Positions 24,602-49,700 of a stretch of DNA of 64,000 bases are shown piece by piece. Made by a program: the position numbers and the translations under genes. Every line of letters starts with the position of its first letter. Within the stretch, counting starts at the first letter, position 1. This DNA is from Lingula anatina (lineage: Eukaryota > Animalia > Brachiopoda), in the NCBI GenBank assembly GCA_051362555.1, contig CM120642.1, positions 20,274,001-20,338,000 of the forward strand. The letters run 5' to 3'. The notes beneath the pieces were generated by a model. It was given only the letters and a program-made list of their open reading frames with translations, had not been told where the DNA came from and did not search any database.

Positions 24602-26953
24602 TGCTCTTAGACTCTAAAGAAGTGTGTCTTAAACATTATGATAAAGATAGCACTGAAAAAAGTTTGCAGCATAACAAATTGAAATGCAATACTTGGTTCG
24701 TTTATTTTTAAATTGGTGAATATGATAAATGGTTAAGTGATATTCTTAAATTGTAACCATGTTTTCAATAATCAGGCAAGGCTTAAGATTAGATAGCTTG
24801 TCATGTTGGGAATTTTCTTATTGAAATATGTTCATCATAATATGACAGTCATATTGTGACACATTGATTCATAACTGCACAACAAAAAAGTTCAATGAGA
24901 AGAAAGATCTTACAATATACATTCATATTTAGATATTTTGGTATAAACAAACAAATAAATGAAATTCTAAACCAACACATGCAACAGTTAACACATCAGG
25001 TATATTGTGATGGATTACCAGCAATTATTTGGTTAATTATCAGAGTGTTTTTAATTGATTTTTTTGAAATTTCTATTGTATTTTTGTATTTATGTAGAAC
25101 CCCCAATTCTCAGGAACTGCTCCCTGCCAGACAGTCTTCGACAACAAAGGGTGGGCTGTTATGATACTGTGGAGCTGTTTGTAAGTTTTTTAATGAAAGA
25201 TACATCAGTAACCTTAAATTTATAATACTGCAAAGTAAGTACTTTTGATGTGGTGAAGTCAACCCCTGAAATATTGAAAAAATTGTCCATTTTGTTCTAA
25301 ATGACCATTTTAACGTTTTCAGTTATATCTGTTTGGAAATTACAGAAACTGTGTTGAAAATATGGCCCCATTCGGAACAGTTTGATCCTTGGGCTAACTG
25401 GTCTGTAGATCATATATGGTGGACTCACTTGAAAGCAAGGCCACATAATTCCTTAATGATCTCCCCACCTTCCACACACACCATCCCTGCATGGACTATA
25501 CAATAAAAGTTAAATTGAAACGACTCTGAGATTGATTTCATGTGGAGGCGGGGAGACCACTAAGGGGTCATGCGGCTTTGCTTGGAAGAGGGTCCTCCAT
25601 ATCTGATCTTGAATCAGTTAGTTGATCAAACTGTTCTGAATATGGCCAGTGATTGTAATGTCATAATTATTGCTTTATTTTGTTGACTCTATTGTTACAG
25701 TTTTTGTTTTCTTTTTAAATAAGTAAATTTGTTTATTTATAAGTTTTTTATATGTTTTTCATTATACAAGTTTACATTTTCTTTCCAGAACTACATCAGC
25801 CAAGTACCAGAGGTTGAGTCCATTTTGTTTGTGAATGATGCTTGCCTTACAGACGTGTTCTTCATGATGTGTGTCAAATTCCAGGCAGGTTTCTTTTCTT
25901 TTGAGAAAATTTAACAAAGAATATTAGAGAAACAAGTTGGTATCAGTTGTATTTTTTAATTTTTAAATGATCTGAGATAGATTTAATATTCAGTGGTAAA
26001 ATTAGGTATCAGGTCATATATGCTAACATACTACAATTTATAGCTAGAAAAGCACTCCGAGAGTGCCAAGGCAGCAGTCTCCACCCAATGCTAACCCCTA
26101 AATTTTCATTCTATAATAATTTAGTTTTTTGATTATTGATTGATTGATTTTGGATTCGGATCACCACCAAAATTGGTCCATAACTTTTTGAGTTATGTTG
26201 ATGACAGACAGACAGACAGACAGACAAACAAACAAACAGGGGTGAAAACATAACCTCCTTGGCGGTGGTAATTATAGTACTGATATTGATAAATTGATTG
26301 CTTCATAAATCAAACAATATTTTAATATCTATATACCTATAGTGCTGTTAGCAGGTGGTTTGATTTAAACCCCGTTATGATAAGTTGATTTTATTGGGAT
26401 CATATCTGATCTAATCCCACTGTTATCCCACTGACGACAAGTAAGTTGTGTGACTTGAGACAGATTAGTGCGGTTGGTTAATACTCGGACATGATGGGCT
26501 GATTAAACTTGCTTTCAAATGTCACCGAAGTTTGTATCTGAGAGAACTTCAGAAAAAAAGTATACAGCCATCACCAAAAAATGAGGTGAAAAGTATTGGT
26601 ATTGATTTCAAAATTGTTGAAAGCAAATAATATGATTTCACTTTTAGGACAAAATGGCTAAGCTGAAGAGAGTTGCCATCATGAACTGTCCACGTATCAC
26701 AGACAATGGTTTATACTGGTTAGCCCGGCTGGTCAATGTGGACACACAGGTTAGTGGTCAGCCTCTTGCCAGGGGGACATGAGCAATGGGGTCTGTTGTT
26801 GGTTTGAATGCTTTTGAAATGATATGTTTCAGTTTGCAAGAGCTTCTTGTTTTGTATGGATATGTGATGGTATTGAGGACTCAACAGGAAAATTTCTCAT
26901 TCTTTGGTTGGACCTAGGTATTACAGCAAGTTAGTTTGTACAGTGTAAAAAAA

Positions 26954-26992
<39 letters not shown>

Positions 26993-29900
26993 ATAAAGGC
27001 TTCATTGTGAACAAATACATCATTGTAGCAGAAATCTAGTACATATATATAATAGATATACTGTAACAAGCAACATATACACCTGTAACTACACTAGAGG
27101 CTCTACTATTTACTAATCAAAATCTTTAATGCAGTCTGAGATTCATTTCTGATTTTAGTATTATACTGAGATATATTTAAATGTACATGTTATTTTTTAA
27201 ATAGTTTTTTATCCGTCTCCTCCCAGGTGACAATAGCAGATTGTCCCAAGGTGACAGAGCTGGGGCTTGCATACATGAAGTATGAAATGGGCATACAAGT
27301 GGATACGTTAGAGGGTGAAAAAGAAACAGGTATATGATCCTATGCAGTGTATTCTGGTGTGATGTGGTTACTCAGTAAGGTGCTGTTTAAGAGTAGTGTC
27401 TCTATGCAGCTGTAGAATTCAACCCAGTCAAGGGATGAATTTTAAGAAAATTGCCTTTTTGAAGACTTTTAGCCTAATATGAAAAATGTTTATTCATTGG
27501 TTATGAACATCTTTGAGCATTGCATTATGAAGTTGCCACCGAGTGCTTTATTTATGCACTTTATCCCTAATATAAGCCCAGATGATTGAACGGAAAAGTG
27601 ATTTTGTTGTAAGGATGATTTGTTTTCATATTTGAAAAAGTTTTGAAAGGAATTTTTTGTATAATCCTTGTGAGGGTGTGAGAGGGCATAGACTCATGCT
27701 ACTCTGAACTTTAACTATATAAAATAATATTGACAGTTATACAAAATTTATCTCTTAATTTTATTTTTGATAAAGCTAAGCAAAATCAAGAGCACCTAGC
27801 CCTTGTGTGTCCTCCGATGGATCTGAATATCAGTGTTGCAAGCTTAATTCGCCGTGGGACCAGCTTAGAAGACCCAAATGTTCAAAAGCAGGCATCGTTC
27901 AGTTATATCAAGAAGGCAAAGATGGGAGAAAGTACCTGGAATTTGCTAGAGCTGCCTCTTTCCCATGTAAGTTCTATTCTTGTCTTGATTTTATTTGATA
28001 AAGCATGTATTGTCTTAACTTGTCCTAGTTATTATGTTTTATGTTAGTATGTGATTGACAACTTTAAGATAAAGAGCTGGAAAATATTTTTAAGCCTACC
28101 TTTTTGTATGTATGATTGTAGCTCAACAAAATTATTAATAATAATAATAGGAAGTGAAGAGATTTGCTATTTTTTCAAAATTAATAATAAAAGCATTTAT
28201 TTAATGATATTTGTTCAGTAGCAATAGCATTATTACACTTTGATATTAAACATTTAATTTTATTTCATTGCCTAGCCATTGTTTGAGTCTGTTGCCCCAC
28301 GAAGAGTTAGTCAAGTGATAATACCTGTTGACTTTGCCAAGAGCAAAGAAGAAAGTGTGCAGCATGTTTCACAAGTGATAACAAATGTTATTGCCAAGGT
28401 AAGAAAAGAAATCTAGGTATGTTTGTATGTTATAGCTGGGTTTAGTTTATCAAAAAAAAGAAAAGCCCAGTATATTGAAAAAGTTTGCTTAAAGGTACAC
28501 TCCAAGGGTTTGAAAATCCCCCATATGCTTATTTTTGCCATCCATATAAAACTTCTTATAAAACCTTTCATACACCTTACAAATTATTTTTAAAACTCCC
28601 TAAATAATTTTTTCCTGGAGCATACCTGATTTTGATACTTCCATTGGAGCCTAGGAAGTTGGTTCTGATTATAATGACTGGCCAGTCATTTTAAACTAAA
28701 TCTACTTTTATAAATTTAGTTAAAAGTCAAGTCCAAAGGTCTATTACCGATGAGCACTTTTAACAAAAACATATTAACCAAAGACTATAGTTTATGGTCA
28801 TTTATACATGTTATTAGATAGATAACCTGTACTCAATATTGTTTTTGCAGGATCAGTCTTTGCCACCAATTATGAAGAAACTGCCAGAATCTAAGTCTAT
28901 AACGTGTGCAAGATTGGAAGGAATAGAAGAAGTGGAAGGAGACTTCAAGTAAATATCCCCTGAATTTTGAAAATTTTCCCACCATACTAAACATTATTTC
29001 TAAAAGTAGAAGTGATAGTTTGCCCTTGTTGCATAAATTTCTGGAAGCTCTTCCTCTGTTGTCAGCTACTCTTTGTGTTTCTAGTAATGAAATTAATAGA
29101 GGAGGTATTTCCTGTAATCTGTAAAACTTACAGTTACTGTACTACTTGTGTATGGAGATGTCTCTAATAGTCCATCCGTTGTATTGGCTTCTTATCCTTA
29201 GTAACAGTAAATCATATTTAATTCTATAATTATTGTAAACAGGAAACATTTTTCATTTATTTATCGTAAGATTTTTGATTGAAAACAAACTGCTGAAAGA
29301 ATTATAGAAACGTGACAAATCTGATCGGTCAGTCTTCTGGGTACTTCATGTTTCTTTCTTATCATTTTTATTATTTGTTTTTCAGGTACACTTTTAACTC
29401 AAATGTTGCTCTTTTCATTGCAAATGAAAAAATCTGCAAGGATCTGAATTACTTTGAGATAGAAGTTGTGGACACTGGTCGTAGCGGCACTATTACAATG
29501 GGCTGTGTCTCCGCAAGTCACAGGTCTAACAGACAGCCAGGGTGGGAACGGAACTCAGTGGCATACCATTTAGATGACGGAAGGTGAGATTTCTGTTACT
29601 TTGTTTATTTGTTTCTTTGTTTTGTCTGTTTGTGTTATCATTCCATAATAAAGTTCATATCTATCTTATCATTTCTGGCTTGCTCTCTATGGTAATGCAG
29701 ATACAAAAATTATCTAAAAAATTGACTGTTTTCAAATACAGAACACAATACATTGAGGAATACACTAATTGTGGGCAGTAGGGAAGGAAGAGAGGGTTGG
29801 GTGAAACTTCAAAAAAAATTACCAGCCCTCCATCCTTAGAATCTTAGCGTGTGTTCACAGTGAAACTAAAGTCACGGTACTAACTAACTCCATTACCTAA

Positions 29901-32900
29901 CTACAATCTGGCTGAATGCAATCAGATATAAGTCATGTGGTAAGATTAGCACCCAGTACCCCTCCTGGCACTTTGTAGAATACAGAAGCACTGGTGATTA
30001 TATGAGGACACTGGAGACAAGAGGAAGCATGTTTTAAAATCTGTTAATCTGATCTTATTCAGTGATAGGCATTGGATAGGGTGAAACGTAACATACGTAA
30101 AATTATTGTCAGGTATAATCAACACAAAAATCTTGCTGCCAAATATGTATGAGTGGTTAGCCATTATTTTCTTTTACTTGCAGTTTATTTGATAGAGAGA
30201 GTGGAAGTTCAAATTCGACAGCCTCTTCATCAAAAGTGGGCCGTCCAGGGGACATTGTGGCTTGCCAGGTTTTAGGACCATTTGATGATAAGGGAAACCT
30301 AATGTTGAACGTCCCCGTGGATATTAATTTTTTGAAGAATGGGAACCTGGTATATAATGTCCTATTATCTATTTTAAAAATGATTGTAGATTAAAATACT
30401 TGATGAAATTTCATTAAAGACACCTTGATATGAAATTTGAAAAATATCTGGTTAAAATGAAAACAAAAATAATATTTGGGGGTCACACAAGCATATTTGC
30501 TAAATTAATAATTCTATATCAAACAATTATATTGGTTCGTCATGAAATGAGAATGCACAGTGCGCATGCGCGTCAGTAGCACGAGGCGAGAAGCGCGTGG
30601 TTCACAAGAAAATTTTCTTCTGTATATGTATCTTGACTTTTTTGTCAATACATTGGTGTATTTTGTCGTTTTTTTTTTGACAATACATCTTTTCTCCAAC
30701 ATGTCGGAGAAAAATGAGATAGCGGAGAAAGACTAGAAAGAGAAACAAGTTGCAAGAAATAAGAAATCAACTGGTGCTGTTGCAAATACCACTAGTGTTG
30801 CTGCTAAAACCGCAACTAACCAAGATTCTAAGATTCTAGAATACTTGCAAAGTCTGAATGAAAAACTGTCGTCTAATGATGCCAAATTAGACGTGTTATC
30901 CTCTAGGATAACGGATATTGAAGAAACTGTGAACAGGGACGTTTTACCTGGCACGTCCTTTGACTACAGCTTTGACAACGATAGTCGGTGTTCTGATGCT
31001 AAGCGACCTCTGGATGAGGTAGATCCCCAAAGCAAATTTGCGGATATGGCCAAGCGGTTTAAAGGGGAAGACGTCGTGGGCTCTCCATTGGATGAAACAC
31101 TGGCAGCAAATATTAATGATTTATTTCGCCAGGGATTGGAGGAGACTCAGTTTGAAAAGTTGATTGAGAGCATTGCTAGGCCAGACAATTGCCAAGCACT
31201 TACCACCGTACGTTGCAATAAGCTAATTTTGAAGCTATGTACACCGCAAATCAGACACACAGACAGAACACTGCAGACAGTGGGCACGTCTCTGGTGAAA
31301 GGCTCCATACTTATTGCACAAGCAGCAAGTAAGATAGCTGAACTTGATTTTTCTGGTTTTCAGTCAGGCTCGGAGTCAGAGTATGACATTCAAGGGGAAG
31401 CTAATAGTGTATTGGATTTATGCAAAGATGCATTGGCTCTCTTTGGACACTGTAATCAACAGATGTGTATGATCAGGAGAAATTGCATTAAGCCTGTCAT
31501 CAGTAAGGAGTACAGTCATTTGTGTAATCCTGCTGTACCATTTACCACTGAACTGTTTGGAGATGATGTCTCACAAACGGCCAGAGAGTTGGAATACTCA
31601 GCCAAAATAGGCAATAAAATTCAAGGCAAAAGAGAGGTCTATAAAGGAAACTATAGACTCGGTAAAAACAAGACTTTTCATACCGGGCAAGCCAAGTATG
31701 CTGGAAAACAGCAAGGCAGATACACTGAAAAGTTCTCAGGGTATCAGACGACCCGTGGCAGTGATCCAAAAAAGGGAGTTTGGCGCAAGGACCCAAAATA
31801 AATAGGGTAAGTACCCTAGTAGATTATAAAGTTGGAGGTAGATTGAAATATTTCTCCTCTCAATGGGAACCCATTACACATGACGAAAATATTCTTGACA
31901 TAGTGAAACATTGCCACTTTGATTTTAGTGAAAGTGCTCTGCCTATGCAACATAGTTTCTCTCAATCTAGTTTTGACAGACTTGAGAGTGAAGTAATTGA
32001 TAATGAAATAGCTAAATTGGTCAGAGATTAAGTTATTATGCCAGTGAGCTATCAAACTGACCAGTATCTTTCACCTATTTTCTAAACCAAGAAGAAAAAT
32101 GGAGAATTTAGAATGATTCTAAATTTGAAGAAATTAAACATGTTTCTTCCATATCATCATTTTAAGATGGAAAATTTTGAAAGTGCATTGCATATTGTGT
32201 CAAAAAATATGTATTTTTGTTCAGTAGATATACGTATGGCATATTATTCAATACCTCTGGCAGTTGAACAACAAAAATATTTTTGTTTTAAATGGAGAGG
32301 ACAAATATATCAGTACAGGGCAATGCCAAATAGGGTTGGCCCAGGTCCGCGCCTTTTTACCAAGTTAATGAAACCTGTGTATGCTTGGTTACGTAATAAA
32401 GGTTACATTAGCACCTCATACATTGATGATACTCTGTTAGGTGCTGAGACTAGTGAACTTTGTGTGAGAAATGCACATGCCACTATCAGTCTGCTATCCA
32501 AGCTAGGATTTATGATAAATTTTGAAAAAAGTATGCTCTTGCCATCTACTAGTAGGCAGATTACCTACTTGGGGAATATTATTGACTCTGAAAAGATGTT
32601 AGTATATTTACCAAATGAAAGAAAGAATAAAATAAAGGATGCATGTTTAAAATTGCATTATTGTGAATTTGAAACGATCAGACAAGTGGCTAAAGTTATT
32701 GGACTTTTAGTTGCCTCCTTCTCAGCAGTTGAGTTAGGAAAACTTCATTACAGAGTACTGGAAAAGGCAAAGATAAATGCATTGAAACTAAATAAATGCA
32801 ATTTTAATGTTAAGATGCATATCACAATTGATATGAAATCAGAACTTCAGTGGTGGATAGAAAATATTGATACACAGGTACGGGTTATTTGTAGAGAAAA

Positions 32901-35900
32901 TCCCGAGCTTACTATACAGACTGATAGCAGTATGCTTGGCTGGGGTGCAGTCATGAATGACATTAGAATAGGTGGCAGATGGACTAATTTTGAGTCAAGA
33001 AGTCATATAAATGTCCTAGAATTACGTGCTGTTTTGTTTGCTTTGAAGTCCTTTTTGTCACAGATAGAGGGAAAATATATAAAAATATTAACTGATTCTT
33101 CTACTGCTGTTGCATACATAAATAATTTTGGGGGAATTAAATCTCCAAGTTGTGATGAACTCAGCAAACAAATTTGGAATATGTGTATAAAACATAACAT
33201 TTGGATAATGTGTTCACATATACCAGGTATTCAGAATGAAGCAGATGAGCCTTCACGAAGATTTAAAGATAATATTGAGTGGGAATTACAAAATGTTATA
33301 TTCACTAAGATATGTGAACATTATGGTCAGCCTACCGTTGACTTATTTGCAACGAGAATAAACAAAAAAGTAGAACAATTTTGTTCTTGGACACCAGATC
33401 CTGATGCCACATTTATTGATGCATTCAGTTTAAATTGGAAAAAATTTGAACTTTGTTATATTTTTCCTCCTTTCAGCCTTATAACAAGGTGTCTGCAGAA
33501 AATAAAAACAGACAAAGCAAGAGCTCTTATACACTTTAGTGGTACCACTGTGGACAACACAAATATGGTGGCCAATGTTGATGCAAATGCTGGTGAAAGC
33601 TCCTTTGATTTTACCACCAGTGGAAGAAACTTTGATGCTGCAGTTTTCAGAGAAAGTTCATCCTCTATCCAATCAAATGACCTTGATTGCATGCAAGTTA
33701 TCAGGAAGTCTTTTAGAGACCGTGGATTTTCAGAACAATCAATCAACATATTTATGGCATCATGGAGAGCAAAGACTAAATGTCAGTACAAAACGTATTT
33801 ATCAAAATGCTTTCAGTTCTGTTGCGAACGGAGTATTAATTCATTTTATGTTTCTGTAAATGATATTATTGAGTTTTTGACTGAACTGTATAACAAGGGC
33901 TTAGGATATAGTTCCTTGAACACAGCCAGGAGTGCCCTGTCATCACTTGGAATTTTACTGGAACAGTATACAGCAGGATCGCACCCACAAGTTGTCCGTT
34001 TTATGAAAGGTGTATTTAATCTACGCCCACCTACAAGTAGATATATGGATATTTGGGATGTTGATAAAGTTTTATGTTATTTGCGCAAATTGTCACCTGT
34101 GCGTAATATTAGTTTGAAAGACTTGACTTTGAAACTTGCTATATATTTATTGCATTAGTAAATGCTGCCAGGATTCAGACTGTACACTTGTTGACTGTTA
34201 AGAATTTTAAAAAGTTAACGTCTGAATATGTTTTCTGTTGTGATGGTTTAATTAAGCAAAGTAGACCAGGAGTTCATTTTTCCAAAGTTCATTTAAGGGC
34301 TTACCCTCCTCATAGGAGACTTTGTGTGTACACTGTCATGAAAGAGTACTTGAAACGTACTAAAATGTTGAGACACAGTAAAGAAAACAGGTTGTTGATA
34401 AGTTTCAGAAAACCACATAAAGCAGTGTCAAAGGACACTGTTGCACGGTGGATTAAAGTGGTCTTGATAAGATCAGGAATAGATACTGTGAAGTATGGTG
34501 CTCATAGTGTGAGAGCAGCAGCAACCTCTAAAGCTAAGCTGATGGATGTACCTCTTGCGGATATAATGAAACATGCTGGTTGGTCAAATAAGAGTACATT
34601 TACAAGATTTTATGACAAAGAAATAGTCAAAAATGACACAGTAGTGAAAGCTGTACTTGAATTGGATAAGCAAAGGTCTTAAGTCAGTTCATTTATTAAC
34701 TGCTAGTACTTATCTGTTTGATAACCAATAAAGTTTCTTGTTTGAATTTAAACATGATTTTACGTTGTTATTTTTGCATGATTTGTGCTTTAAAGTCTCA
34801 TTTCACGACGAACCAATATAATTGTTCGATATAGAATTAAAAAATTAAACGAAACTTACCTGTAAGTTGATGTTTGATTGTAATTCTATGAGACAATTAT
34901 CAACTTACAGGTAAGTTTCGTTTAATTTTTTAATTATAACATTTATTTTTCACCTAGACCAGTTGGCCATGATTTAACCATCATGGTTATATTATTAACA
35001 AAACTATATGTATGTGGTGCCCCTGTTTCCTCTAGAAAGCGGATTTTATATACGTTTAACTTGATATATTACAATATTAGTGTAAAAATAGAGGCATTTT
35101 TATAATTTGTACATTTTTCTTTTATGTCTAGATGCACAAGAGCAGATTCACATTTTCTGTTCAACCCTATCCTGCAGTTGGTATGCACAGCAGAGGAGAG
35201 ATTTTCAGATTCAAAACTGTAAGTCCAATGTAAACTGTTTTTACTAATTATATTAAAATTTTATATTAAAATTTAATTCCATAAAAAACTTGTATCATGG
35301 GCTGTGCATTTCAATTTGTGGAGACCTGAAATAAAACTGACGTGTCCTGCATTAAATTCATACCTTCTTTCAATTTCACAATGGATTTGCAGAGCTTAGT
35401 ATTCAGATCATATTATTTTATATTATTTGTTGCTCTCTGTGTAATTGCAGCCCAAGTTCAAGCATGCTCCATTAATGAGAAGAGTTGAATTGCTGGATGG
35501 TAATTATTTGCGGTAAGTATTTTGTGTATGGTGATTGTGTGTATGTGTGTGTGTTTCCGTGCATGCGTGTGTGCGTGCGTGCATGAGAGATAGAAAGGCG
35601 AACTTAATAGTAATGCTATGAAACTGTACATTGTTTAGTGCAGGTTTGGGGGATGGGGGGTTAATGGTGCTGTTAAATGCATCCTGAGTCTGCAGAGTAC
35701 AGGGGTTATTAGAATGCTGCAAGGAATGAAGTATAAATTGAGGTTCAAAGTATAAAATTAAGCAATGTTTGATATGCTTTTATACGGAGATTAAATTTTT
35801 ATGTTTTTGTCACTCAGTATGAAATTCAATCACCCATTCCTGCTTGGGACTGTATATCTTTGGAGTGGTTGAAATCTCACATCAGTGATGTATAATAAGA

Positions 35901-36913
35901 ATGATCATTATTTATTGATTATTTATCTTCTTTCTCAGGAGCACCGGTGGAGGAATGGGGCAGTATATTGGTATTGTTCCTCTTGAGGTCAATGACTATT
36001 TTGAATTTGAGATTTTGAACGTAGATATGCAACGCCACGCCATCACAATAGGTGCTGTGCCGAAATCCCATTCAGAATCTGACCAGCCCGGTTGGAGGAG
36101 AAATTCTATTGGACTTCATGCTGATGACAGAAAGTAAGATACTTTTTTGAATTAATTTCTTTCCTGTGAACATCTGGTTCTTAAAGGGTGTGAAAAAAAA
36201 GGAAGGAGTTTTAGAAATCTAGTTCCTGCTGTCAAGTGCGAGTATTTTGTTTCATTTGGTGTATTGGAGTTATTTGAGTATTTGGAGAAATTGCATCTTT
36301 AACAAGTAGAGCATAGTCCAATGTGGATTTTGAAGTATATAGTATGATACTTTGCAAAATAGGAGATTACAACTCACCAAATGGAGGCCTGAAATTCCAC
36401 GAGACTTAAAAGTTATTATACACATTGTCATAGTTTGTCATAATTTGCTTAAGTCAGTTATCTGTATTTGATAAAAAATGCTACGTAAATAAATCTTTGT
36501 TGCTTGTCCCTTTGTACAAGTCATATAGTTTACTGGACTTACAGCAAACTCTTTCACATTGACTGTACCCCCAGATTTTAGCTATTTTTCCATTTATTTA
36601 TTCAATATTAAATTTTTTTTTATTATTACAAGTTTTGACATGCTTTGACAGCTTGTAGTAAGTTATCTGTATATAGCTGTAAAATAAAAGTTTGTGGAAA
36701 ACATGATAACTGAATAATAACTTAAAGTAATTTTTCACTTTTAGATGTTTTCAGGGAGGGGGATCTTTTGTGCCCAACTATCCAGAAAACTTGGCACGCA
36801 AAGATTTTGCAGTAGGAGACAAGATGGGGTGTGGACTGCGTCCCTTTGACATGCCGAATGGCCAGAATGTCCTCTGCATTTACTTCACATGGAGTGGGTC
36901 AATAGTATGTCTG

Positions 36914-36956
<43 letters not shown>

Positions 36957-37409
36957 GCACATAAGTGTATGAACACACGTTCAGGCATAGACACACATTC
37001 ACACACTGAGCATGCACAGTATTACACAAACACACACATCACCTGCATATCTTTGGAGGCATTCTTCATTTTTTGTTCAATTTTAGGTAGTAAAAGTACC
37101 CAGAGAGGAAGTTGCCCCACCTGACGTCCCATTGTTTCCCTTCATAAACCCTGGGCTGCATTCGAATAACGAAAGTGGTGTGAAAATAACAAGACCTTTC
37201 TTGTCCAGTAAGGTAAGATGGCTCCAATGAAAATAATATTGAAAACTTAAAACATATGTAAGCAAAATGAGGTAGGCCTATAACACTTAGCAAAGGAACA
37301 TTCAATTTGGAGATTTCCTAATTTTAGTAGTCAGTTTGATCCCTCTCAGAGATAATGTGAAGGTGTTTGTCTTTGTGATTTGGGCACATTGGATTTATTG
37401 GAAGGTGGT

Positions 37410-37451
<42 letters not shown>

Positions 37452-40400
37452 GGCATATTATGTATTTGAAACTAGACTGTGTGTGTTTTTATTAACTTTT
37501 CTTTGTGTATAATTTTCTTAATTTGTGATTACTTTGTTTAGGATGGTCCTTCACACGCTGGTGCAATCCCCCCTGAGCTTGTTAAGGCATCCCCTTCACA
37601 GATCTTGTATTGGGGCACACCCTTCCAAATTGCAGGGGTTGGGAAGGGCACTTTGGATGACCTGATGGATGTATATACCCAGGCTGTGAACAAAGTACAG
37701 CAAACACATGCTGGCCTGTTGAAGCAAATGACAGCTTACAGTGATGGCTTGATGAGTGGGAAGACGTATGTATAGCAGAGTAATACTATATTGTATTTTG
37801 ACATTGTGATTATTAGATGAGACTTAAGCTTGCATAAATGACACACGTAGCATTGCAAATAATGATCATAGGATCTGATTTGTGTCTCAGAAAGAGCAGG
37901 AAGGGCAGGGTGCATTTATTTTTTTGGTCTCAAAACTGAGGCCTTAAAAATAAATGTCTAACTTGACACTTTTTAATGACAGGCCTGAGCTTATATAGTA
38001 GCCATCTCTATTAAAGAGGTCAGTGCCAGGCCAACTGCATTTTACTCAGTCAGTCATTTTTAAAGTGTTCTTCAACTGGTGCTTCAGTACATATATTATT
38101 ACAAAGCTGCCTTGTATGACAAATTTGTCTTTTTCTTACCTAAAGCCTAAAACTGAGGTTATTTGTGAAAAAGAGTCCACAGCCAGTCGTCAGCACCCTG
38201 CAGCTGAAAGAATCTCTCTTAACTTGGCATGAACTGATGTACTTTTTTTTAAACAGAAGATAAATTTTTTTGCACATCAATAGAAGTTATTCCATAAAGG
38301 ACTTTTTTTATATTAGTAGGGGAGCCAAGGCAAAAAATTAGGGTGAAAAAAAATTTTTATGATATAAAATTTTCGAATATATGGTCGGAGAGCCTGATAC
38401 CTGGGGTTTATGAATCTGCTTATTGGACAAATGGGCTCAATTGCGAAAGTGCCCAAAAATCCAAGATGGCCGCCACCCCTAAGGAATATGCAATAAATGG
38501 ATAAATTATGAAAAATGGTTGATATTTTCATTTAGTTTCAGGGTAGATATTTTTATTGTCCATATATTGTGGAAATATGTACTATCTGGTGATCTGTAGC
38601 AGAAATTGGTCAATTGGATTCAAAATGGCCGTTCTATCCAAGATGGCGGCCAATATTTCAACATTTTTTGCAATTAAATCCTCTTTTCATTGATCTACAA
38701 TTTCTTTCAATCATGATATGAGCAAACATTTATCAAATAAAGATTGCCTCTACTATTTTCTGCATTTGTACCATCTATGTGTAATATAGAGGCTTTGTGA
38801 ATACAAAAAAATCCAATATGGCCGCCATGCACCCTTTACCATTATGAGTCAAGGGTACTACCTGTCTTTTATAGAAAAGTTCAAATATCTACTTTAATGA
38901 AGCAAATGCTATTTCTATTTAACAATTTTTGGGTGAAGGGGAATTGCTTCAGTATTTTAGAGGTAAATTCAAAGAGCTATTTCAATCCAAGATGGCAACT
39001 TTATCCAAGATGGCGGCCAAATTTTCACAAGTTTTTGCAATGAAGTCATGGTTTCTGTAATCTAGAACTACTTTCAATCATGGAAAAAGCTTAATTTTAT
39101 CAAATATAGAATTTCTCCAATACTGTGTGCATTTTTGCTATCTGAATGCATAATTAAAGTTAGATGATTAGAGAAAAATCTAATATGGCTGCCATACACC
39201 CCTTACCAATATGAGTCAAAGGCGAAACATATCATATCAAAAGTTGGTATATCTCATTCAATGAAGTATATTATACTTTCATTTTAAAACATTTGGTAAA
39301 GTACACTTGTTTTTTATTTTATGATGTTTAATTATACACTACCTATTAATCCAATATGGCTACTCTATCCAATATGGCAGCCAAAATTTGACCAATTTTG
39401 CAATTTAATCCCTTTTCTTTTTGTCAGAATTTTTTTCAATCTTCTAGAAGCAAAATTTCATCAAACATAGATGCTCTACCCTAATTTCCTGCATTTTTAC
39501 TATCTTTATACAGAAAGAAGGCTTTATGCCTATAGAAATACCCAAAATGGCCACCATAAATCCCTTATCATTACCCTCATATGAAACAAAGCGACATATC
39601 TCATAAAAAGTTGAAATATCTCCTTTGATGAAGTACATTTCATTTTTATTTTACAATATATGGGTATATGAGAATTTTTTCACTTTTTGCAGATAAATTT
39701 AAGATGGCATGTTTATTCACAGTAAATTATTTACAAGTTTCTTCACATTCATATGCATGTTCTTGGACCATTGTATTTTTAGCCTAACAACTATGTTGTC
39801 AAATTACATGTCTAGAATAACATCATTATCTATTTATTTGTTTATCAAAAAGAAGCTCAAAGGTTTTGTACAATAATAATTCCAATTCCATGCAAATTTC
39901 ACTTCATGGAATCAAAGCTAAACTCATATTTTATTGAAACTTCAAACAACATTTATTTAAACTATGCAATAGATACTAGTTTCATTTATTACATTGGTGT
40001 TTTAGTTACCTCCGCCAAGGAGGTTATGTTTTTACCCCTGCTTGTTTGTTTTTTGTTTGTTTGTCATCAACATGACTCAGAAAGTTATGGATGAATTTCG
40101 ATAGAATTTTCAGGGTAGGTCAGAAATGGGTTAACTTAGAAGTGACCTGGATCAATAATCAATCAATAATCAAAAATAAAAAAATCAAGTTATGGACCAA
40201 TTTTGATGAAATATTCAGAAGCTGCCAGAAGTGGGCCAAGGAACAGATTATTAGTTTTTGGTGGTGATCCAGATCAATAATCAATCAATAATAAAAAAAC
40301 TAGATCATTATAGAATGAAAATTTAGGGGTGAAACAGCATTGGGTGGAGACTTTGCTGCCTTGACAGAGGTCTGCGCTCTCGAGGTGCTTTTCTAGTTGC

Positions 40401-43400
40401 AATTTATTTTTGGGAATACAGATGGTGGCCACAACTATCCATTTTGCTGTTTAGCAGTTTATAATGTCCCACATCATTAAGTCATCATTAATTTTATTGC
40501 TGCTGATTTGCAGAATATTGCAGCAAATTGGAAAGAAGGAATTGCAATTTGCAGAAGATTTGCAGCAATAAAGCAGTAAATTTGCAACTGACCTGATATT
40601 TTGGTAAGGGTAAAGCTCATAAGGTATAGAAATGAAAAGCATCCTCAGTTGGGAGGAGAAACCTAAGATCTGCTTTGCAAGAAGCAAATATGCAGGGCCT
40701 TTGGTCATATCTTAAGACCCAAAAATCCATATAGCTGTACAAAAATCATGCGCTCCTCTTCCATAATACCATGTAACTGTAAGGTGGTGACATTCTCCTC
40801 CATGCTGGAAAAGATTACAAAATGCCAAGCATTTGCACTTCCCATGCTTATAAGGAGAGTTAAAGAAACTACGCCCGGTAAGCTCATAAACCGTACTCAA
40901 ACCACATCCATGTGGACCATAAGTGCTTTATGTAATATGTAAGACAAAGATCAATGTATGAATTGGAAGAAACCTTCCAATTTTCGCAACCTGCAGTGAC
41001 CTATGTGTATGGCTAGGTTCTGAGGAATATACCCATGACCTCTTTACCAATATGCTTAATGAAATACCCAAGTACTAAATGCTCCAATTCTCCAATCCAC
41101 TGTAACACCATGTTTCCTCAGGAGGAATCTTAGACGCGTCGGATCCTTTAGTTTCCACTCTCCTTTGGGAAAAGAAAATCTGATCACCAAGCACAAAAAG
41201 GTTTTTCACCCATTGGGCAATGAACTGAAGGAACCATAACATAAGGTTTTCGATAAGCATTATTTTGACGTGGGTCTTGTCCCTGTATCTACTATGCTGA
41301 TTTGAGCTGGTGAAACCTGTGGAAAATATTGTATCCTTCCAAGGCAGCAGGGTGGTGGAGGATTCATAATGTTAAGAGATGGATACACCCATGACCACAG
41401 ATTGTCCTTGGTTCTTATTCCATGACCCTTTAACAGTGCCAGAAACAGGGAAGAAGTATTGATCAATGTAGTGTCCCTACATATTCAGGTGCACATCGAA
41501 TAGCAACTCATTTTTATGGACAAAAAAGGCATGCCCCCGCAGAGAAATTCAAAACTGCTTATAAGGTGGTTAGTTTGGTATGGCCAGCAGCTTCTCAAAG
41601 TCTTATTCCAAAAGATAACTATCAGGACAGCATCCAGAGGTATAGAAACATGTTACAGTTGGAGAGAGCTTGTCAGGAATGATGGATGAGCAGAGATGTT
41701 ATGAAAAATGAATATATGCCTGTTGTGTGAAGGATAATTACCACATATTTTGAAATCTGTTTGTAATCCTGTTTTACCTCTGAAATCAAGTTTTAAAGGT
41801 CCACATCATCTAAATAAACCCAACTTAATATTAATTGTTAAGTTAAAAGTAATGCTGCATGGCAACATTAAAGTAACATACATGCCTGTCATGTCCAGTG
41901 TTAAGATAAAAAATATATTTTATGAAGTCTCATGATGTAACCTGATGTGGTCCAACAGCTTTGGAGTTTTGTGTCGGCCTCTTTGTATTATGCTCATGTG
42001 AAAAATTTAACTATACAATTATAGGAAATTAATGTTTAGATCTACATAAGATAAGAAATTGGTATATAAGCAATATGAATTTATATCTTTGGGAGAGAAA
42101 AGAAGAAGAGGAGAGGAGATTGGGAAAAACGGAGCAGACGTGTTTTCAAGAAGTTAGGATTTGGAGACTTAGAAACATCAACGAATAAATCCTTTAACTG
42201 GTCATTATGTGGACTTGGGTTCTCTTTGTGCGACCTTATGTAAATCTGGCATGAAGTGTAGAATCTTTAGATTGCATTATCCACTAAGTTAGTCGAAATC
42301 GTCCTATTTCAAGCCCACACTTGAATTAAGCATCCTACATTTTTATGACATTCAATCCATATATAAAGAAAAGTTCATTACATGACATCTGGGATGACAA
42401 GTCTTTGATGTCATCTATAAAATCTATATCAGTGCCACCTGAAAAATATACATTAAATAACAGATTTCAACTATCAGTAAAGTACACATGGTACCATTGA
42501 TTTGTAATGGTAAGGGGTATATGGCAGCCAAATTGGATTTTTCTCTAATGAAAAAGGCTTAATCATATTCTTTACAAATATTAAAATGTAGGAGATATTT
42601 AGGAGAATTTATATTTCTTAAAATATTGCTTTTACCATGTTTGAAATAATTTCTAGATTATAGAACATGTGCCTCAGTTGCGAAAATGGTAAAATAAAGG
42701 CAGCCATCTTGGATAAATAAGCCATTTTGAAAAAGGATATGGTCTCAGCTTTACATTCAAAAATAAGCAATTGTCCTTTACCAATAAATTGCAAAGGAAA
42801 CATGGAATATACTTCATTGAAGAAGATATTTGATCTTGCAAATAAGGTGCATGCTGTGCGCACCTTTGGGCCATAACGGTCGACATGCATGGTGGCCATG
42901 TTGGATTTTTTTCTAACTATAAAGATTAATACTGTACAGAGAGAGGAAATACAGGTCATACTGTACATAACTTATATTTGATGGTGTGTTGCTTCTATCA
43001 AGATTGAAAGTAATTCTAGATTAAATAAAACATGACCTAACTGCAAAAATTGCCAAATTTTTGGCCGCCATCTTGAATAAAGCAGCCATCTTGGGTCAAG
43101 ACACCATCTCAAATTTACCTTGAAATATTTAAAGCAATTGTTCTATACCTGCATATTGTAAAATAAAAATAAAATATACTTCATTTAATAAGGTATTTCA
43201 ACTTTCAAAAAGATATACATTGTGCTTTTGACTCATTATGGTGAGGGGTGTGTGGCGGCCATATTGGATTTTTCTCTTAATCAAAAAGCCTACATAGTGC
43301 ATGCAGACAACAGAAATGTGTGAAATATTATAAATAAAAATATGTTATGACAGTTATTTCTAATATCACTCTTAAAAGAAATTTAAAATTGAAGAAAACA

Positions 43401-46400
43401 TGACTTAATTGCAAAAAATAGTGAAATATTGTCCGCCATCTTGGATGATGCGGCCATTTTGAACCCAGTTGTCAAATTATTGTTACAGATAACCAGGAAG
43501 TGCATATTTCCACAATATATACACAATAAAAGTAATGTAGACTTCAGCAAAAAAAAATATTAATCACTTTTCATAATTGATGCTTATTCTGTGTATTCAC
43601 CATGGCTGGCGGCCATCTTGGATTTTTCTCTTATCCATCAAGCCATCATTCTGTAAACAGATACTTGAAATGCAGGAAATGATGTAGACAACCTATATTT
43701 GATAACAGTTTGCTTTAATAATAATTGAATATAATACAAAATGAAAGCAAACATTATTTAATTGCAAAAAATGGTGAAAAATTGGCCGCCACCTTGGATA
43801 AAGCGGCCATTTTGAGTCCAATTGACTAAATCTAGCTTTTGATCACCAGAGAGTACATATTTCCACAATATATGGACAACACAAACATCTAAACCTAAAG
43901 AAACTGAAAATATCAACCATTTTTCATAATTGATGCTTGTTCTCTGTATTCACCATTGCTGGCGGCCATCTTGGATTTTTGGGCACTTTCGCAATTGAGC
44001 CCATTTGTCCAATAAGCAGATTCATAAACCCCAGGTATCATGCTCTCCAACGATATGTTCGAAAATTTTATATCATTAAATTTTTTTTACTACCCTTTTT
44101 TGGAGGCTTTTGGAGTTTGGCTCCCCTACTATATTATTTCATGTGAAAATCCTTTTCAGCTCTGTGAAGAAATTCTCCTTGCTGCAGGAATTCTGCACTT
44201 TGAGCATCCAGCTGGATAGATTTTCGAGATTCCTGGGAGCTCAAAAGGACATAGTGAAGCATGTCTGCCTGGATGAAAAGGTAAGGCCAGACAAATTTTG
44301 TAGATTGGTTGGGTACAACCTACCCTAATTTTGAGGAAATCAGTTATTGCACCTATTTTTATGTATAAAAAAAAAATTCACGGGGTATTGATGTGGTAAG
44401 AGGAAGAAATTTACAATTTACAACTCAAAAAATATCCACGCTATGGGTTTGACATTTCCCCTTGAAATGAATATTCACCACCCTTAAAATAAAAGAAAAA
44501 CACTGGCCAGCCCTGAAATTAAATTGATATGTTCGTTAAACTTCATGATGTTTTGAAAAAACAAAAGCAAAGTTTAACCTAAATTTCCTCTGTCTGCCCC
44601 GTTTACTGAGAGTTGTCACGCGAGAACCAGTGGATCAATTTTGTCAAAACTAATGATGAACAATGTCCATTATAAAAAGCTATGTAAGATATTAATTTTA
44701 AGAAGTTAATTTTAATGTTAAAATTTAAATGTTAACTAATAAGAAGTAAAATGTATTATTTTTCTATTTCAAGGATCTCTCAGAAAAAGTTATGTAAGAA
44801 GTTAATTCTAAGACTTTAATTTTAATGTTAAAATGTAAATGTTAACTTAAGAATTAAAATATATTATTTTTCTATTGCAAGGGTCTCCCAGAAATGTTCA
44901 ATGGTCTTCTAATATGTCAGAAGATCAAGGATTTTGTTAGTCCCTGGCAGACAGACAGCAAGGAGCAGAAAATAGTCCAGAGGTACGCTGGAGTGAACGC
45001 AGGGGGGATTGCAGATGACAGTTGGAAAAACATCCATGGGATCCATCACAAGGTCCTGAAAGATTTACATTCTCAGGTAAAAAGGCTTTATAAGTTTTCT
45101 TTTAATTGCAAATCTTTGCATACTTTAGGGTTTTTCTTTTTGCTGACAAATACATGACTGATTGTAGTATAATATATATTGAAGAATCTATTTTCTTTAT
45201 CATATTTACTTTCAGTAAAGTTTATTTAATTAAAAAAACTTAATGTCAGAATTGAAGAAGAATGATTGTTAAGTGTCAAAATTTTAAAGGTTGAATAATT
45301 ATATAATATTGATTTTACTTTATCTTATTTTATGGCAGAATATATCATCATCATTCTGCAGTAATTGTTTAAATTTTTTATAAAAAATTAAACAATGAAC
45401 TAGAAAAATGTTAGAGTCTTTTAGTCAAGAAGTGTATAGATGGTTTCAGGTTATTTATTGCCAGTATATTGATATATATACACGTCTCAGATTGTGCTAC
45501 TGAATGAATTATGACAAAACATTAAATTTCCATCTCAGTTGTATCCAGAAACAATCTTTTTAATTCTGTCCCAATTTATTGTATTCATGAATTTATTTGT
45601 GACAGTACATAAATAAAAAAAAAACATTTATTTTGGGCATGAACTTTTTAATGATGTAATGACTTTTAACTGATCACTGTATTTTAATATTAAGATTAAA
45701 ATCTCTTGTTTTAGGGTATTATTCTGTACCTGAGTCAGCTTCCAGAGCCGATAGTGATCTTGAACATAGAGGTGTTTGCAGCAGTGATGAACAAGGCACT
45801 CAACTGTAGCACTCCTGTTCCCATGTCAACCCCTGTGCTATATCTGCCAGATGGGCAGAAGGTTTATACCTGGCAAAATTTGAAGGAGGCAGTTACCAGT
45901 ATTGATTCTGCAATTGATGATAAAAACTTCCAGGTAACCATATATATATAAGTATTCTTTTAACCAAGCTGTTTTTGTAAAGTATATACTGTGCATGTTG
46001 TACAGTTCTGGCTTAGTTAAGTTAACATTAGATATTGGACGGAAAAAATTATAGAGATCATTATTAACATATATATCCCTTTGAGTTTGTAAGTGCTGAT
46101 CTCTTCTATGAATTTTCACTGTCATAAAACAATGTTAATATATGTTATCTACAGACACTGTGATTGAAATTGTGTTATTTTGCTACTTTCAGATACTGTA
46201 CAAGATGATTAATGACCTGGGGATTCTCCAAGAGGCGAAAAGTTTCCGCACCAGCCTCACCCCAGAAGATTGGACATATCTTTTCTTCAATTGTCGGACT
46301 GTCCAACAGCCCAGCATTCCACTGGTCAGTCAGAAATATTACATATTACGTAATTAAGTAAATGTAGATTGTCAAAAATTACTGTTAGAGGCAAAGTATA

Positions 46401-46669
46401 GGCAAATTATTATTCAAAAATACTTTCTTTGAAGTTGATAATTGCAGGTAATGGATTTTAAAATTAACAATTCTTGTTCATCTAAATTTTAGCACTTTGT
46501 TCTTAACAATATGATGGCTGGTTCAAACAGTAAGCCAAGGGGTTATTCTGTTTAGTCTTTCGTTCCTCATCATATTCATTAGTGGCTACAGAGATCTTAT
46601 TTTGGGATGTGTGTGCAATTAATGATAATAATAATAATAATGATAATAATAATAATAATAATAATAATA

Positions 46670-46708
<39 letters not shown>

Positions 46709-49700
46709 ACATGAATTCTACTGCTCAGATGAGTGATAAATATTATTGTTATCTAGAATTAATGTAGAATTTTATGCTCCTTTATATTTCAGGAAGATTT
46801 CAATTGTCCTCCCAATGCACCAGTCATCAAGAAGACACAAACCTATACATACCCTGCCGGGTTCCACAGGGATCTTTTGCCGGCCATTTTTGCAGCTTGT
46901 GAACAGTTTGTTTCACCTGAAATTGTTTGGGCACAAGGATTTCTGTGTCGGCATGATGGAATCGAAGTCATGGTCAATGAAACTATTACTGGTGCGGTAA
47001 TTTCCTAAGTAATACAAAAAAAAAGTATTAATCATATTTTTTTGACAGCATAGTTCTTTTGGATAAAACTCAAATGACGAAGTGCTTGTTGAATGGGTTT
47101 ATTCAAGAAAGTTGCCCGCTGAAAGTTGGGTTTTATAAGTTAAAAAATTGATTTGAAATAGCAAAAATTTATATTAAAAAAATCTGAAATAGAGACAATT
47201 AATAATTTTGAGTTTTGTTACGTACCAATGTATGTTCATGGGATAAAGATCTTACATTTCTGTTACTTAGTTATAGTTACTGTAATAAATAATGTTTTTT
47301 TTTGTGAATTTTTATTATTTTTTTTTCATAGGTATGGGCACAGGTATGATTACCCTCTCTGGGCAAAGCTACAGACCAGAGGATGAAAGGGCAAAGGCTG
47401 AGATGGAAAGGAGCATCTTGTTAGAGATGTATATCTATGGCATGGTCATTGACTCAGTGCTGGGAGAGACGCAGACTCTAGCTTTTCGACAAGGTGGGTG
47501 GTTTACTTAGTAGACCCTCTTTCAGACATCTGATATTAGCAGTCTTTACTGTTTCAGTTTCAGTTGTTTCATTAGTCAAGAGGGATTTGGAAACTGCTAA
47601 TCTGGAGTTGAAATCTATTGATAATGGGGATAATTATCTGATTCAGAAACCAATCTTTAGCTGCCAGTAATCACACAGTCAAGTAACTAATAATAAAATT
47701 ATCTTAGTTTTTATACCAGTTTGACATGATACATATCTAATAGTACCAGTCAGTTGCCATGAAAAAGTGACCTATTTTATGAAGATTGTTGGTTCTTCTG
47801 CTAAGTAATTTTTTATGTACAGACACAGATGTGTCTGTACATATAGCCATCATCTGCGTCTGTCGTCGCCGTCGCCGTCGTTGCCGTCGCCGTGCACTTT
47901 TACCGATAACACGATAAGTGGAAAACCATTTTGCCTTTTGATTTGAAACTTGCAGAACTGATGAATATTCATAATACGCAGGTCAAGTTCGAAAATCAGC
48001 ATGATCGGGTCACTCTTAGGGAATTTATGCTGTTTTTATGTACAGACACAGATGTGTCTGTACATATAGCCATCATCTGCGTCTGTCGTCGATGTCCCGT
48101 CGTCGCCGTCGCCGTGCACTTTTACTGATAACACGATAAGTGGAAAACTGTTTTTTCTTTTGGCTTGAAACTTACAGAACTGATGAATATTTGTATTACG
48201 CAGGTCAAGTTCGAAAATCAGCATGATCGGGTCACTTATAGGGAATTTATGCTGTTTTTTCACTTTTTTCAGCATATATGCAGCACTGATAACATGATAA
48301 GTGGAAAACCATTTTACCTTTTCCCTTGAAACTTACAAAACTGATGAATATTCATAATACACAGGTCAAGTTTGAAAATCAGCATGATCGGGTCATATTT
48401 AGGGAAGTTATGCTGTTTTTCACTTTTTTCACCATATATGCAACACTGATAACATGATAACTGAAAAATCATTTTACCTTTTGACTTGAAACTTACAGAA
48501 CTGATGAATATTCATAATACGCAGGTCAAGTTCGAAAATCAGCATGATCGGGTCATTTTTAGGGAAGTTATGCTGTTTTTCACTTTTTTAACCATATATG
48601 CAACACTGATAACATGATAAGTGAAAAATCATTTTACCTTTTGGTTTCAAACCTACAGAACTGATGAATATTCATAATACGCAGGTCAAGTTTGAAAATC
48701 AGTATGATTGGGTCATTTTTATGTACAGACACAGATGTGTATATATAGCCATCATCTGCGTCTGTCGTCGTCGCCGTCGTGCACTTTCACCGATAACACG
48801 ATAAGTGAAGAACCGTTTTATCTTTTGGCTTGAAACCTGCAGAACTGATGAATATTCATAATACGCAGGTCGAGTTCGAAAATCAGCATGATCGGGTGAC
48901 TTGTAGGGAAGTTATGCTGTTTTTTCACTTTTTTCAGCACATATGCAGCACCGATAACACGATAAGTGGAAAACCATTTTACTTTTTGGCTTGAAACTTA
49001 CAAAACTGATGAATATTCACAATCCGCAGGTCAAGTTCGAAAATCAGCATGATTGGGCCATTTTGAGGGGAGTTATGCTGTTTTTTCACTTTTTTCAACA
49101 TATATGCAACACTGATAACACAATATAAGAAAAACAGATCGACCAATTGTCATTATATTCACAGGAGTGGTCAATCTTACTAAAACGCAGGTTGAGTTCG
49201 AAAATCAGCATAATTGGGCCATTATTTCAAAAGTTGTGCTGTTTTTTCACATTTCCTCTTGATTCAATTCTTAGGCATGTTAACAGTCTCATTATTTAAC
49301 TAATAAGATACGTAAAAGTATTTGTTTGATATTTCCTGCATCTTTACAACATTGTTAGTTGATTATGTAAAAATGATGGTAAACTTGTTATTGTGTATCG
49401 TGTAATAAAGTGTCAAAAATGGAAATAAACTCATATCATTGCAGTTTGTTAGATTCAATCATCCACTATGTTCAGAATCTCAGAATGGAGGGAATTGGAC
49501 ATTTAACACTGTTCTATTGATATTTTTCCCATCTCATCAATTTTCTTAGTTGGTCATATAAAAATGTAAGCAAATTGTTTATTTTATGTTAAAAAAGTGT
49601 TAAAAATGGAAATAAACCCATTTGAGAACAGTGCTGTCTTGTTTACATTTTGGCATTTTTAAGATGTGATTTTGAAGTTCCATGAGCCTGCAGACCTTCG

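Follow-up and report, generated by a model that had tools for sequence, protein, structure and literature searches.

A probable tandem Roco gene of Lingula anatina with a SPRY cassette inside a predicted Roc-like domain lacking G motifs

At one locus of the brachiopod Lingula anatina, a pair of SPRY domains lies between leucine-rich repeats (LRRs) and a COR-like region, which raises the question whether a Roco protein can carry a Roc domain that has lost its G motifs and is split by other folded domains, and what such a domain would do. The window (the whole stretch of DNA analysed, 64 kb) likely holds the N-terminal part of a tandem Roco gene encoding at least 3,000 residues. We consider it reasonably probable that this protein combines LRRs, a SPRY-split GTPase-fold domain without G motifs and a degenerate COR with a second, live unit that is regulated by the dead, sensing arm.

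A sequence-only reading had described 27776-47493 as a single open spliced frame. Splicing in silico of these 17 exons together with two LRR exons upstream (26648-27329) indeed gave a frame of 954 residues with 0 stops and GT..AG introns throughout, and all peptides quoted in that reading were found in place. The full window model, which adds five 5' exons, one of them with a GC donor, and two 3' exons, counts 1237 residues, again with 0 stops (Table 1); the gene thus does not end at 47493, as had been implied, since further exons lie at 63497-63677 and from 63952 on. LRRs are present as claimed, but upstream of 27776, and they belong to the RI/FBXL type rather than to the one usual in Roco proteins (orthologue fold comparison, E ~0.01). 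VWA and ubiquitin-like domains, considered for the 5' exons on the basis of motifs, were dropped as these exons have no Pfam match.

Table 1. Features of the tandem Roco gene model in the window
Feature	Position	Strand	Evidence
5' exon, candidate ATG, Lingula-specific N-terminal extension	22877..22950	+	junction 22950>23886 (7 reads, 2 runs); open frame
Exon, Lingula-specific extension	23886..24012	+	acceptor in RNA; frame model
Probable exon, Lingula-specific extension	24293..24530	+	open frame and splice sites only; no Pfam match, no RNA depth in bin
Probable exon, LRR-block N-cap	25098..25180	+	frame; resembles orthologue N-termini by eye
Probable exon, first LRR, GC donor	25789..25884	+	frame model
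Exon, Cys-containing (RI/FBXL-type) LRR	26648..26749	+	orthologue profile E 0.01; orthologue fold
Exon, LRR	27227..27329	+	spliced frame
Exon, predicted pseudo-Roc strand 1, helix 1, switch I region, strand 3; without P-loop, DxxG	27776..27966	+	frame, profiles
Exon, predicted pseudo-Roc strand 4 and helix 3	28276..28398	+	orthologue profile E 1.6e-9; tblastn 42-44% (two orthologues)
SPRY module 1 exons	28851-28948, 29386-29583, 30184-30349, 35132-35218	+	phase 0-2-2-0-0; junction 28948>29386 in RNA
SPRY module 2 exons	35451-35512, 35939-36133, 36745-36904, 37087-37212	+	phases and intron positions as module 1
Exon, predicted strand 5 (no G4 motif) and helical hairpin start	37542..37765	+	profiles; matches XP_013389506.1
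Exon, hairpin end and predicted strand 6	44160..44280	+	RefSeq match, profile
Exon, predicted helix 5 and COR-A start	44882..45076	+	RefSeq match, profile
Exon, degenerate COR-A	45715..45933	+	RefSeq match, Atlas features, profile
Exon, degenerate COR-A	46193..46324	+	RefSeq match, profile
Exon, degenerate COR-B, weak donor agreeing with RefSeq model	46793..46991	+	frame, RefSeq match, profile
Exon, COR-B end	47332..47493	+	RefSeq match, profile
Exon, Cys/His-rich module, likely Zn-binding	63497..63677	+	conserved in all orthologues
Exon cut by window end, gene continues	63952..64000	+	100% to XP_013389506.1 residues 478-494

Both claimed SPRY domains were recovered by a profile built from four orthologue SPRYs, with the Lingula sequence left out (iE 6e-21 and 5e-12); Pfam run on 18 single exons gave one weak SPRY match only, under the cut-off (E 0.002). 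The pair is a duplicated phase-0 four-exon module with identical phases and intron positions. Orthologues were found in the nemertean Tubulanus polymorphus (XP_074647641.1), the freshwater mussel Sinanodonta woodiana (KAL3880395.1, KAL3880394.1) and Mytilus (CAG2254410.1, VDI29781.1), under the database names 'uncharacterized', 'roco5-like' and 'SPRY domain-containing', none of which mentions the first unit. The family looks narrow, as phmmer gave 5 matches among 1.84 billion sequences, by which distant members may be missed; a word-based search with the COR region returned the Lingula protein only. The orthologues share with Lingula the flanks of the cassette, the COR, the Cys-rich module and, in models of sufficient length, the live Roc-COR-TIR part, and differ in the SPRY content of the insert and in an extra post-COR SPRY, which is not detectable in Lingula. 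The exon just before the cassette (28276-28398) is the best conserved of the dead unit, ranking top of 2113 ORFs with the orthologue profile. The insert occupies one site between flanks common to the orthologues, measures 68, 156, 386 and 597 residues across four species, and holds 0 to probably 3 SPRY domains: a 68-residue K/E linker without SPRY in Mytilus, 156 beta-rich residues without detectable SPRY in Tubulanus, and one clear and two weak SPRYs in Sinanodonta. The Cys-rich module is conserved in all orthologues and has no family assigned; invariant positions occur in it and in the COR. By Pfam, no F-box, SOCS-box or RING was found in eight database proteins or in the window exons scanned, which leaves an earlier suggestion of ubiquitin signalling without support here. 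Between species, identity is 15-29% for the dead unit vs 58-61% for the live one; such fast divergence of the dead unit fits a sensor but would also fit a relaxed spacer.

The G motifs of the N-terminal unit are gone. The G1 P-loop (GxxxxGK[ST]) has 0 matches in 4/4 N-terminal units, and G3 (DxxG) is absent at the switch II position, with one stray DxxG-like match in the COR-A of Mytilus, so that the proposed loss of G1 and G3 holds in 4/4 species; the G4 pattern is lost from 4/4 units as well. The strand ILYWGT had been taken as the G4 strand, a placement about seven residues early: the conserved post-insert strand is PFQIAGV, just after it. Two candidate P-loops were rejected, namely a post-SPRY strand read as strand 1 with a P-loop remnant in one weak alignment (it lacks a Walker A and is not conserved among orthologues) and a GKT in exon 37542, which has the wrong spacing and sits in a hairpin.

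Beyond the window, the gene likely continues into an intact LRR-Roc-COR-TIR-TIR unit. Pfam places Roc, COR-A and COR-B over cut-off in XP_013400345.1 and in three orthologous proteins; these live units carry G1, G3 and a G4-like motif, with GLGGAGKT in 4/4. The single Tubulanus and Sinanodonta proteins that contain both cassette flanks have Roc, COR-A, COR-B and TIR over the Pfam cut-offs. In Lingula, the link from the window to the live unit goes through two RefSeq models, both partial and each on a contig of its own, with XP_013389506.1 overlapping XP_013400345.1 at 289/290 residues. Because the gene likely runs on into this intact unit, the protein is better described as a tandem dead-plus-live Roco than as the nucleotide-independent scaffold first proposed. 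An origin by internal duplication is not demonstrated, since with the dead-unit profile bacterial Rocos score at least as high as the in-family live units.

As to its working, the flanks may close into one G-domain fold that presents the SPRY cassette on its helix 3-strand 5 loop, as the predicted models suggest. The dead unit would be a fixed, nucleotide-free platform, whose SPRY and LRR modules may bind ligands or partner proteins. Binding would be passed to the live Roc-COR, and a GTP-driven monomer-dimer cycle, by analogy with the one reported for Chlorobium Roco (PMC5714945), could then cluster or release the TIR domains. Judging from domain content only, the context is likely intracellular innate immune or stress signalling. 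Alternatively, the dead Roc-COR could be a passive relic or spacer whose sole role is to hold the SPRY cassette, without control of the live unit. The low identity of the dead unit, a strand 5 to strand 6 span varying from 55 to 72 residues and the lack of SPRY in the insert of the Mytilus models would suit such a spacer, but the entire unit, with all predicted core elements, is retained in a brachiopod, a nemertean and bivalves, and the invariant positions in the COR and the Cys-rich module also argue against it, making a mere relic rather unlikely in our view. Equally doubtful is a single-chain asymmetric Roco dimer, in which the dead Roc-COR would be a tethered pseudo-partner of the live one, holding the TIR domains off until an exchangeable, splice-ready SPRY cassette set into its G-domain binds a ligand. 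Complex prediction of the dead vs the live unit scored 0.00 (partner fold uncertain, alignments unused), which speaks neither for nor against such pairing. Were such a dimer to exist, it would be a natural test bed for the role of the partner protomer in the LRRK2/Roco dimer cycle.

Returning to the tandem Roco with a sensing arm, the evidence for the fold of the split domain comes from the Mytilus protein and not from the Lingula window protein. An Atlas model of Mytilus residues 60-345 (both flanks plus the K/E linker; pTM 0.60) aligns to predicted models over 149-178 residues that span the full range, and 8 of the 10 matches listed are G-domain families (Arf/Roc/Ras, EF-Tu type), with TM by row <=0.59, TM by query 0.43-0.48 and family scores under the bar; its feature match to Roc (0.84) is a lead only. 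The flanks of this SPRY-less orthologue are thus predicted to form a whole, Ras-like G-domain fold. Both AlphaFold models (one of Tubulanus) reached a pLDDT of ~42 on 8-row, partly misaligned alignments, and in both the strand-helix order fits Roc for the first half. A profile alignment is colinear over 144 columns. Compared to Roc, the pre-SPRY half shows no sequence likeness (86/100 shuffles score as high), the joined pre- and post-SPRY core is marginal (6/100), and only the post-insert strands plus helix, in the C-terminal third, stand out (1/100). The Roc HMM matched none of the dead units, two VIA searches listed no match in the Roc range (only COR-B-like sheets and the hairpin matched), and Foldseek on the Tubulanus model gave none at E<=0.001. 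A Roc origin of the pre-SPRY half, with the Roc strand/helix order kept, is suggested by predicted structure and position and not by sequence.

The pre-SPRY segment could instead be another small alpha/beta domain, with the SPRYs lying between domains and only the part from strand 5/6 onward plus the COR derived from a Roco. This would explain the insignificant sequence signal of that half, a significant profile match that begins at strand 6, and AlphaFold models that assemble no confident G-domain. We judge it improbable, as the Mytilus Atlas model aligns to G-domains and as the LRR-COR position, the length of ~100 residues and the strand-helix order match what is expected of the absent N-terminal two thirds of a Roc. 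The SPRYs had been proposed to lie inside a dead Roc fold; the data support a position of the SPRY pair between helix 3 and strand 5 of the predicted Roc-like fold, in which the pre-SPRY half lacks significant sequence likeness to Roc.

The COR motifs, earlier called clear, were detected by three approaches, yet proved degenerate and below Pfam detection. Atlas features gave COR-A at 0.95 (186/256 features), 9/9 Foldseek matches at E<=0.001 were Roco structures (weak model), and a SPRY-excised four-species profile matched 28 Roc-COR sequences (Prob 87%, E 3.8e-6) over 269 columns from strand 6, a match reached by 0/100 column shuffles. With only three in-family Roc-CORs the profile comparison was not significant (P 0.085), Pfam on XP_013389506.1 found neither COR nor Roc at E<=10, and a PDB sequence search with this protein returned LRR matches and one chance match only. 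A degenerate COR in the first unit is thereby supported.

RNA evidence came from raw-read runs labelled as the same species (depth ~1), with a second mapping at 90% likeness whose junction table is dominated by a repeat near 40.1-40.4 kb. Among the junctions listed, 2/16 introns of 27776-47493 appear, 28948>29386 and 35218>35451, the latter joining SPRY module 1 to module 2 (8 reads, one run), together with one intron upstream (Table 1); the other introns, including both that bound the cassette, are absent from that list at this depth, so the junctions are confirmed in part. Over residues 18-418 of the Lingula anatina RefSeq model XP_013389506.1, the last seven exons of 27776-47493 show 10 differences, and the first 16-17 residues of that model equal the +1 frame of exon 37542, from which a one-base assembly difference explains the RefSeq gene split at this exon. 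By tblastn, the exons on either side of the cassette match single proteins of Tubulanus and of Sinanodonta, both flanks thus lying within one protein in two orthologues. That the SPRY part, the COR part and the live Roco belong to two or three separate genes, as annotated by RefSeq, which begins a gene at exon 37542 and has the live Roc in another model, would agree with the absence of 37212>37542 from the RNA junctions listed and with the pre-SPRY exon matching no database protein (nothing in the word-based search), but is highly unlikely given the one-base difference that accounts for the split, compatible exon phases without a stop in the window, and orthologues that form one chain each (3306 and 4435 residues).

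Roco proteins such as LRRK2, LRRK1 and Chlorobium tepidum Roco, as described in PMC6337361, share with the Lingula family the LRR-Roc-COR order and a COR-like fold, and its downstream unit resembles them in G motifs and Pfam Roc, COR-A and COR-B. Unlike these, the family has two Roc-COR units per chain, the first G-motif-less and SPRY-split, a TIR output, N-terminal RI/FBXL-type LRRs and no kinase by Pfam. Class i pseudoGTPases are defined in PMC12490416 by loss of the G motifs with the G-domain fold retained and no nucleotide binding or hydrolysis; the first unit has lost its G motifs in this sense. AAGAB, a class i member that uses its G-domain fold for protein contacts (PMC12490416), and the pG domains of p190RhoGAP, likewise dead G-domains inside a larger signalling protein (PMC5593906), are comparable, whereas the fold of the Lingula family is only predicted, is part of a Roc-COR tandem and has folded domains inserted in it. 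Variable sensor ends and exon shuffling are described for brown-algal ROCO candidate immune receptors (PMC11378527) and bacterial AP-GTPase/COR conflict systems (PMC8195603), papers that also note non-conserved insertions inside Roc and, in comparison, SPRY as a recognition module in eukaryotic immunity. As far as these papers describe them, those systems are single Roc-COR units with no SPRY inside Roc, and PMC11378527 does not contain the word SPRY. Among 25 bacterial Rocs with P-loop, two have inserts of 51-52 residues in the helix 3-strand 5 loop. In agreement with the earlier claim, our literature search found no paper on an LRR-pseudoRoc(SPRY)-COR architecture, although papers on Lingula immunity or bivalve TIR proteins may list the C-terminal unit.

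What is new here is the tandem dead-plus-live Roco. The coupling of dimerisation and GTP turnover in Roco proteins, LRRK2 included, is described as still debated (PMC6337361), and with one dead plus one live Roc-COR per chain this family keeps the two protomer roles naturally apart. It would lengthen the short list of pseudoGTPases by one of the Roc type. Its G-domain loop would serve as a socket that takes between zero and three SPRY domains, encoded by a symmetric exon module, by which animals that lack adaptive immunity might diversify their receptors. Since the first unit escapes Pfam entirely, similar dead Roc-COR units may hide in other annotated proteins.

The exons were positioned by hand in the AT-rich animal DNA of the window and then spliced by coordinates, and as the sequence-only reading had claimed for its gene at 27776..47493, they join into one open frame: 19 exons (26648-47493) encode 954 residues with 0 stops, all introns being GT..AG, and a longer model, extended both 5' and 3', has 1237 residues in 26 exons, one of them with a GC donor. 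A search with one COR exon retrieved the Lingula anatina RefSeq protein XP_013389506.1, which differs from the last seven exons of the gene as originally read at 10 of 401 residues and agrees with the weak donor at 46991. The +1 frame of exon 37542 (37542-37600) corresponds to the first 16-17 residues of this protein, and the RefSeq annotation splits the gene because of a one-base difference in the RefSeq assembly at this exon. RNA runs carrying the Lingula anatina species label gave low plus-strand coverage flanking the SPRYs on both sides and supported three junctions (22950>23886, 28948>29386 and 35218>35451). The proposed junction check was thereby answered for 2 of the 16 introns originally read, six further ones match RefSeq, and the two that flank the SPRY cassette are putatively placed from phase and orthologues. 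The observation of this Roco-like gene is real. An exon-like block at 25323-25654, with a good acceptor and in-frame stops, is possibly an alternative exon or one that has decayed; the open model does not require it.

The suggested orthologue search succeeded in other invertebrates. With 1186 residues of XP_013389506.1 against 1.84 billion representatives, phmmer gave five matches: the protein itself and another Lingula model, plus proteins from Sinanodonta, Mytilus and the nemertean Tubulanus. All these relatives share the order N-terminal LRRs, conserved 100-residue segment, insert, strand, helical hairpin, COR-like region and Cys/His-rich module. A profile built from the N-termini of three orthologues and run against 2113 window ORFs ranked exons 28276, 26648 and 27776 first to third (E 1.6e-9, 0.01 and 0.16, respectively), and exons 5' and 3' of the cassette match the same single orthologue proteins. 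Near-identical pieces across three consecutive Sinanodonta locus tags (P0004, P0006, P0007) point to tandem duplication; the C-terminal BTB-BACK-Kelch tail of P0007 (KAL3880395.1, residues 3849-4335) is probably a fused adjacent gene.

In Tubulanus (a protein of 3306 residues) and Sinanodonta the chain continues with SPRY, LRR, Roc, COR-A, COR-B and a pair of TIR-like domains; Roc, COR and TIR_2 lie above Pfam cut-offs. This second, live unit was invisible to the sequence-only reading because the window stops at the Cys-rich module. In Lingula, XP_013389506.1 overlaps at its C-terminal end with the start of XP_013400345.1, which carries an intact Roc-COR-TIR; 289 of 290 residues are identical, and the joined length is ~2,990 residues, the second model (XP_013400345.1) being partial. 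The second TIR presumably retains Glu at the catalytic position of NADase TIRs. An EF-hand-like loop lies between two LRR blocks ahead of the live Roc (database proteins and positions given for loop and TIR Glu: P0002 319-331, P0003 1936 and 2806-2825, P0004, P0007).

The first, dead unit lacks Walker A, as well as DxxG at the expected place, in all four proteins compared, confirming the proposed loss of G1 and G3 before the SPRYs. The G4 pattern is likewise absent (4/4). GLGGAGKT is present in 4/4 live units. Interspecies identity is 15-29% for the dead unit (23-33% for its pre-insert half) and 58-61% for the live unit.

The insert between predicted helix 3 and strand 5 measures 68 residues in both Mytilus species, 156 in Tubulanus (beta-rich in the structure model, no SPRY detected), 386 in Lingula (two SPRYs) and 597 in Sinanodonta (one clear and two weak SPRYs). 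Each Lingula SPRY is a four-exon module with phase 0 at start and end; the three inner introns of both modules coincide in aligned position and phase, and the modules are identical at 51 of 162 residues. Exon duplication of such a symmetric module accounts for the change in SPRY copy number. The frame stays open if one or both modules are skipped, a structure that would allow alternative splicing. In Ras, the helix 3-strand 5 loop points away from the nucleotide site. Two of 25 P-loop-bearing bacterial Rocs (L018, L020) carry inserts of 51-52 residues in this loop, and insertions within Roc are known from brown-algal Rocos (PMC11378527).

Neither a two-unit Roco nor a SPRY inside Roc was found in the literature searched, in line with the earlier statement that no such architecture is described; TIR is among the domains given for Trichoplax Rocos in PMC4104024, and the terms Roc and COR are absent from PMC7075850. 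A predicted LRR-pseudoRoc(SPRY)-COR, likely followed by a live Roco, appears to be an arrangement new to the Roco family. Rocos dimerise chiefly via COR (PMC6337361), Chlorobium Roco alternates between a GDP-bound dimer and a GTP-bound monomer (PMC5714945), SPRY-like domains are recognition modules in eukaryotic immunity (PMC8195603) and class i pseudoGTPases are nucleotide-free interaction modules (PMC12490416). Past the anatomy, we infer every step: most economically, LRR and SPRY on the dead Roc-COR would form a sensing arm, which would be coupled to the live Roc-COR switch with TIR as output, and in the boldest form the dead and live units would make up a putative tethered dimer.

Transposons, repeats and short ORFs in the window
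Feature	Positions	Location	Content
DIRS/Ngaro-type retrotransposon	30501-34938	intron within SPRY module 1	inverted terminal arms 30501-30552 and 34796-34847; gag-like ORF, RT, RNase H, Dam-like methyltransferase, tyrosine recombinase; stops and frame breaks
Penelope-like element	55788-58248	16-kb intron 3' of COR-B	743-residue ORF, RT and GIY-YIG
Dispersed repeats	23040-23500, 40000-40400		high RNA depth on both strands, many mismatches
Satellite-like arrays (units of a few hundred bases) plus tandem duplications of local extent, by eye	47800-49200, 59200-61400, 21000-21800, 22420-22900, 44680-44880		44680-44880 copies acceptor region of exon 44882
Short ORF	17639-17782		presumed likeness to THAP domain
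Short ORF	9715-10047		presumed likeness to Harbinger-type transposase start

A Pfam scan of the two short ORFs gave no match. RNA over the dispersed repeats likely derives from copies in other transcripts, and the low plus-strand depth over the DIRS/Ngaro-type element may come from other copies.
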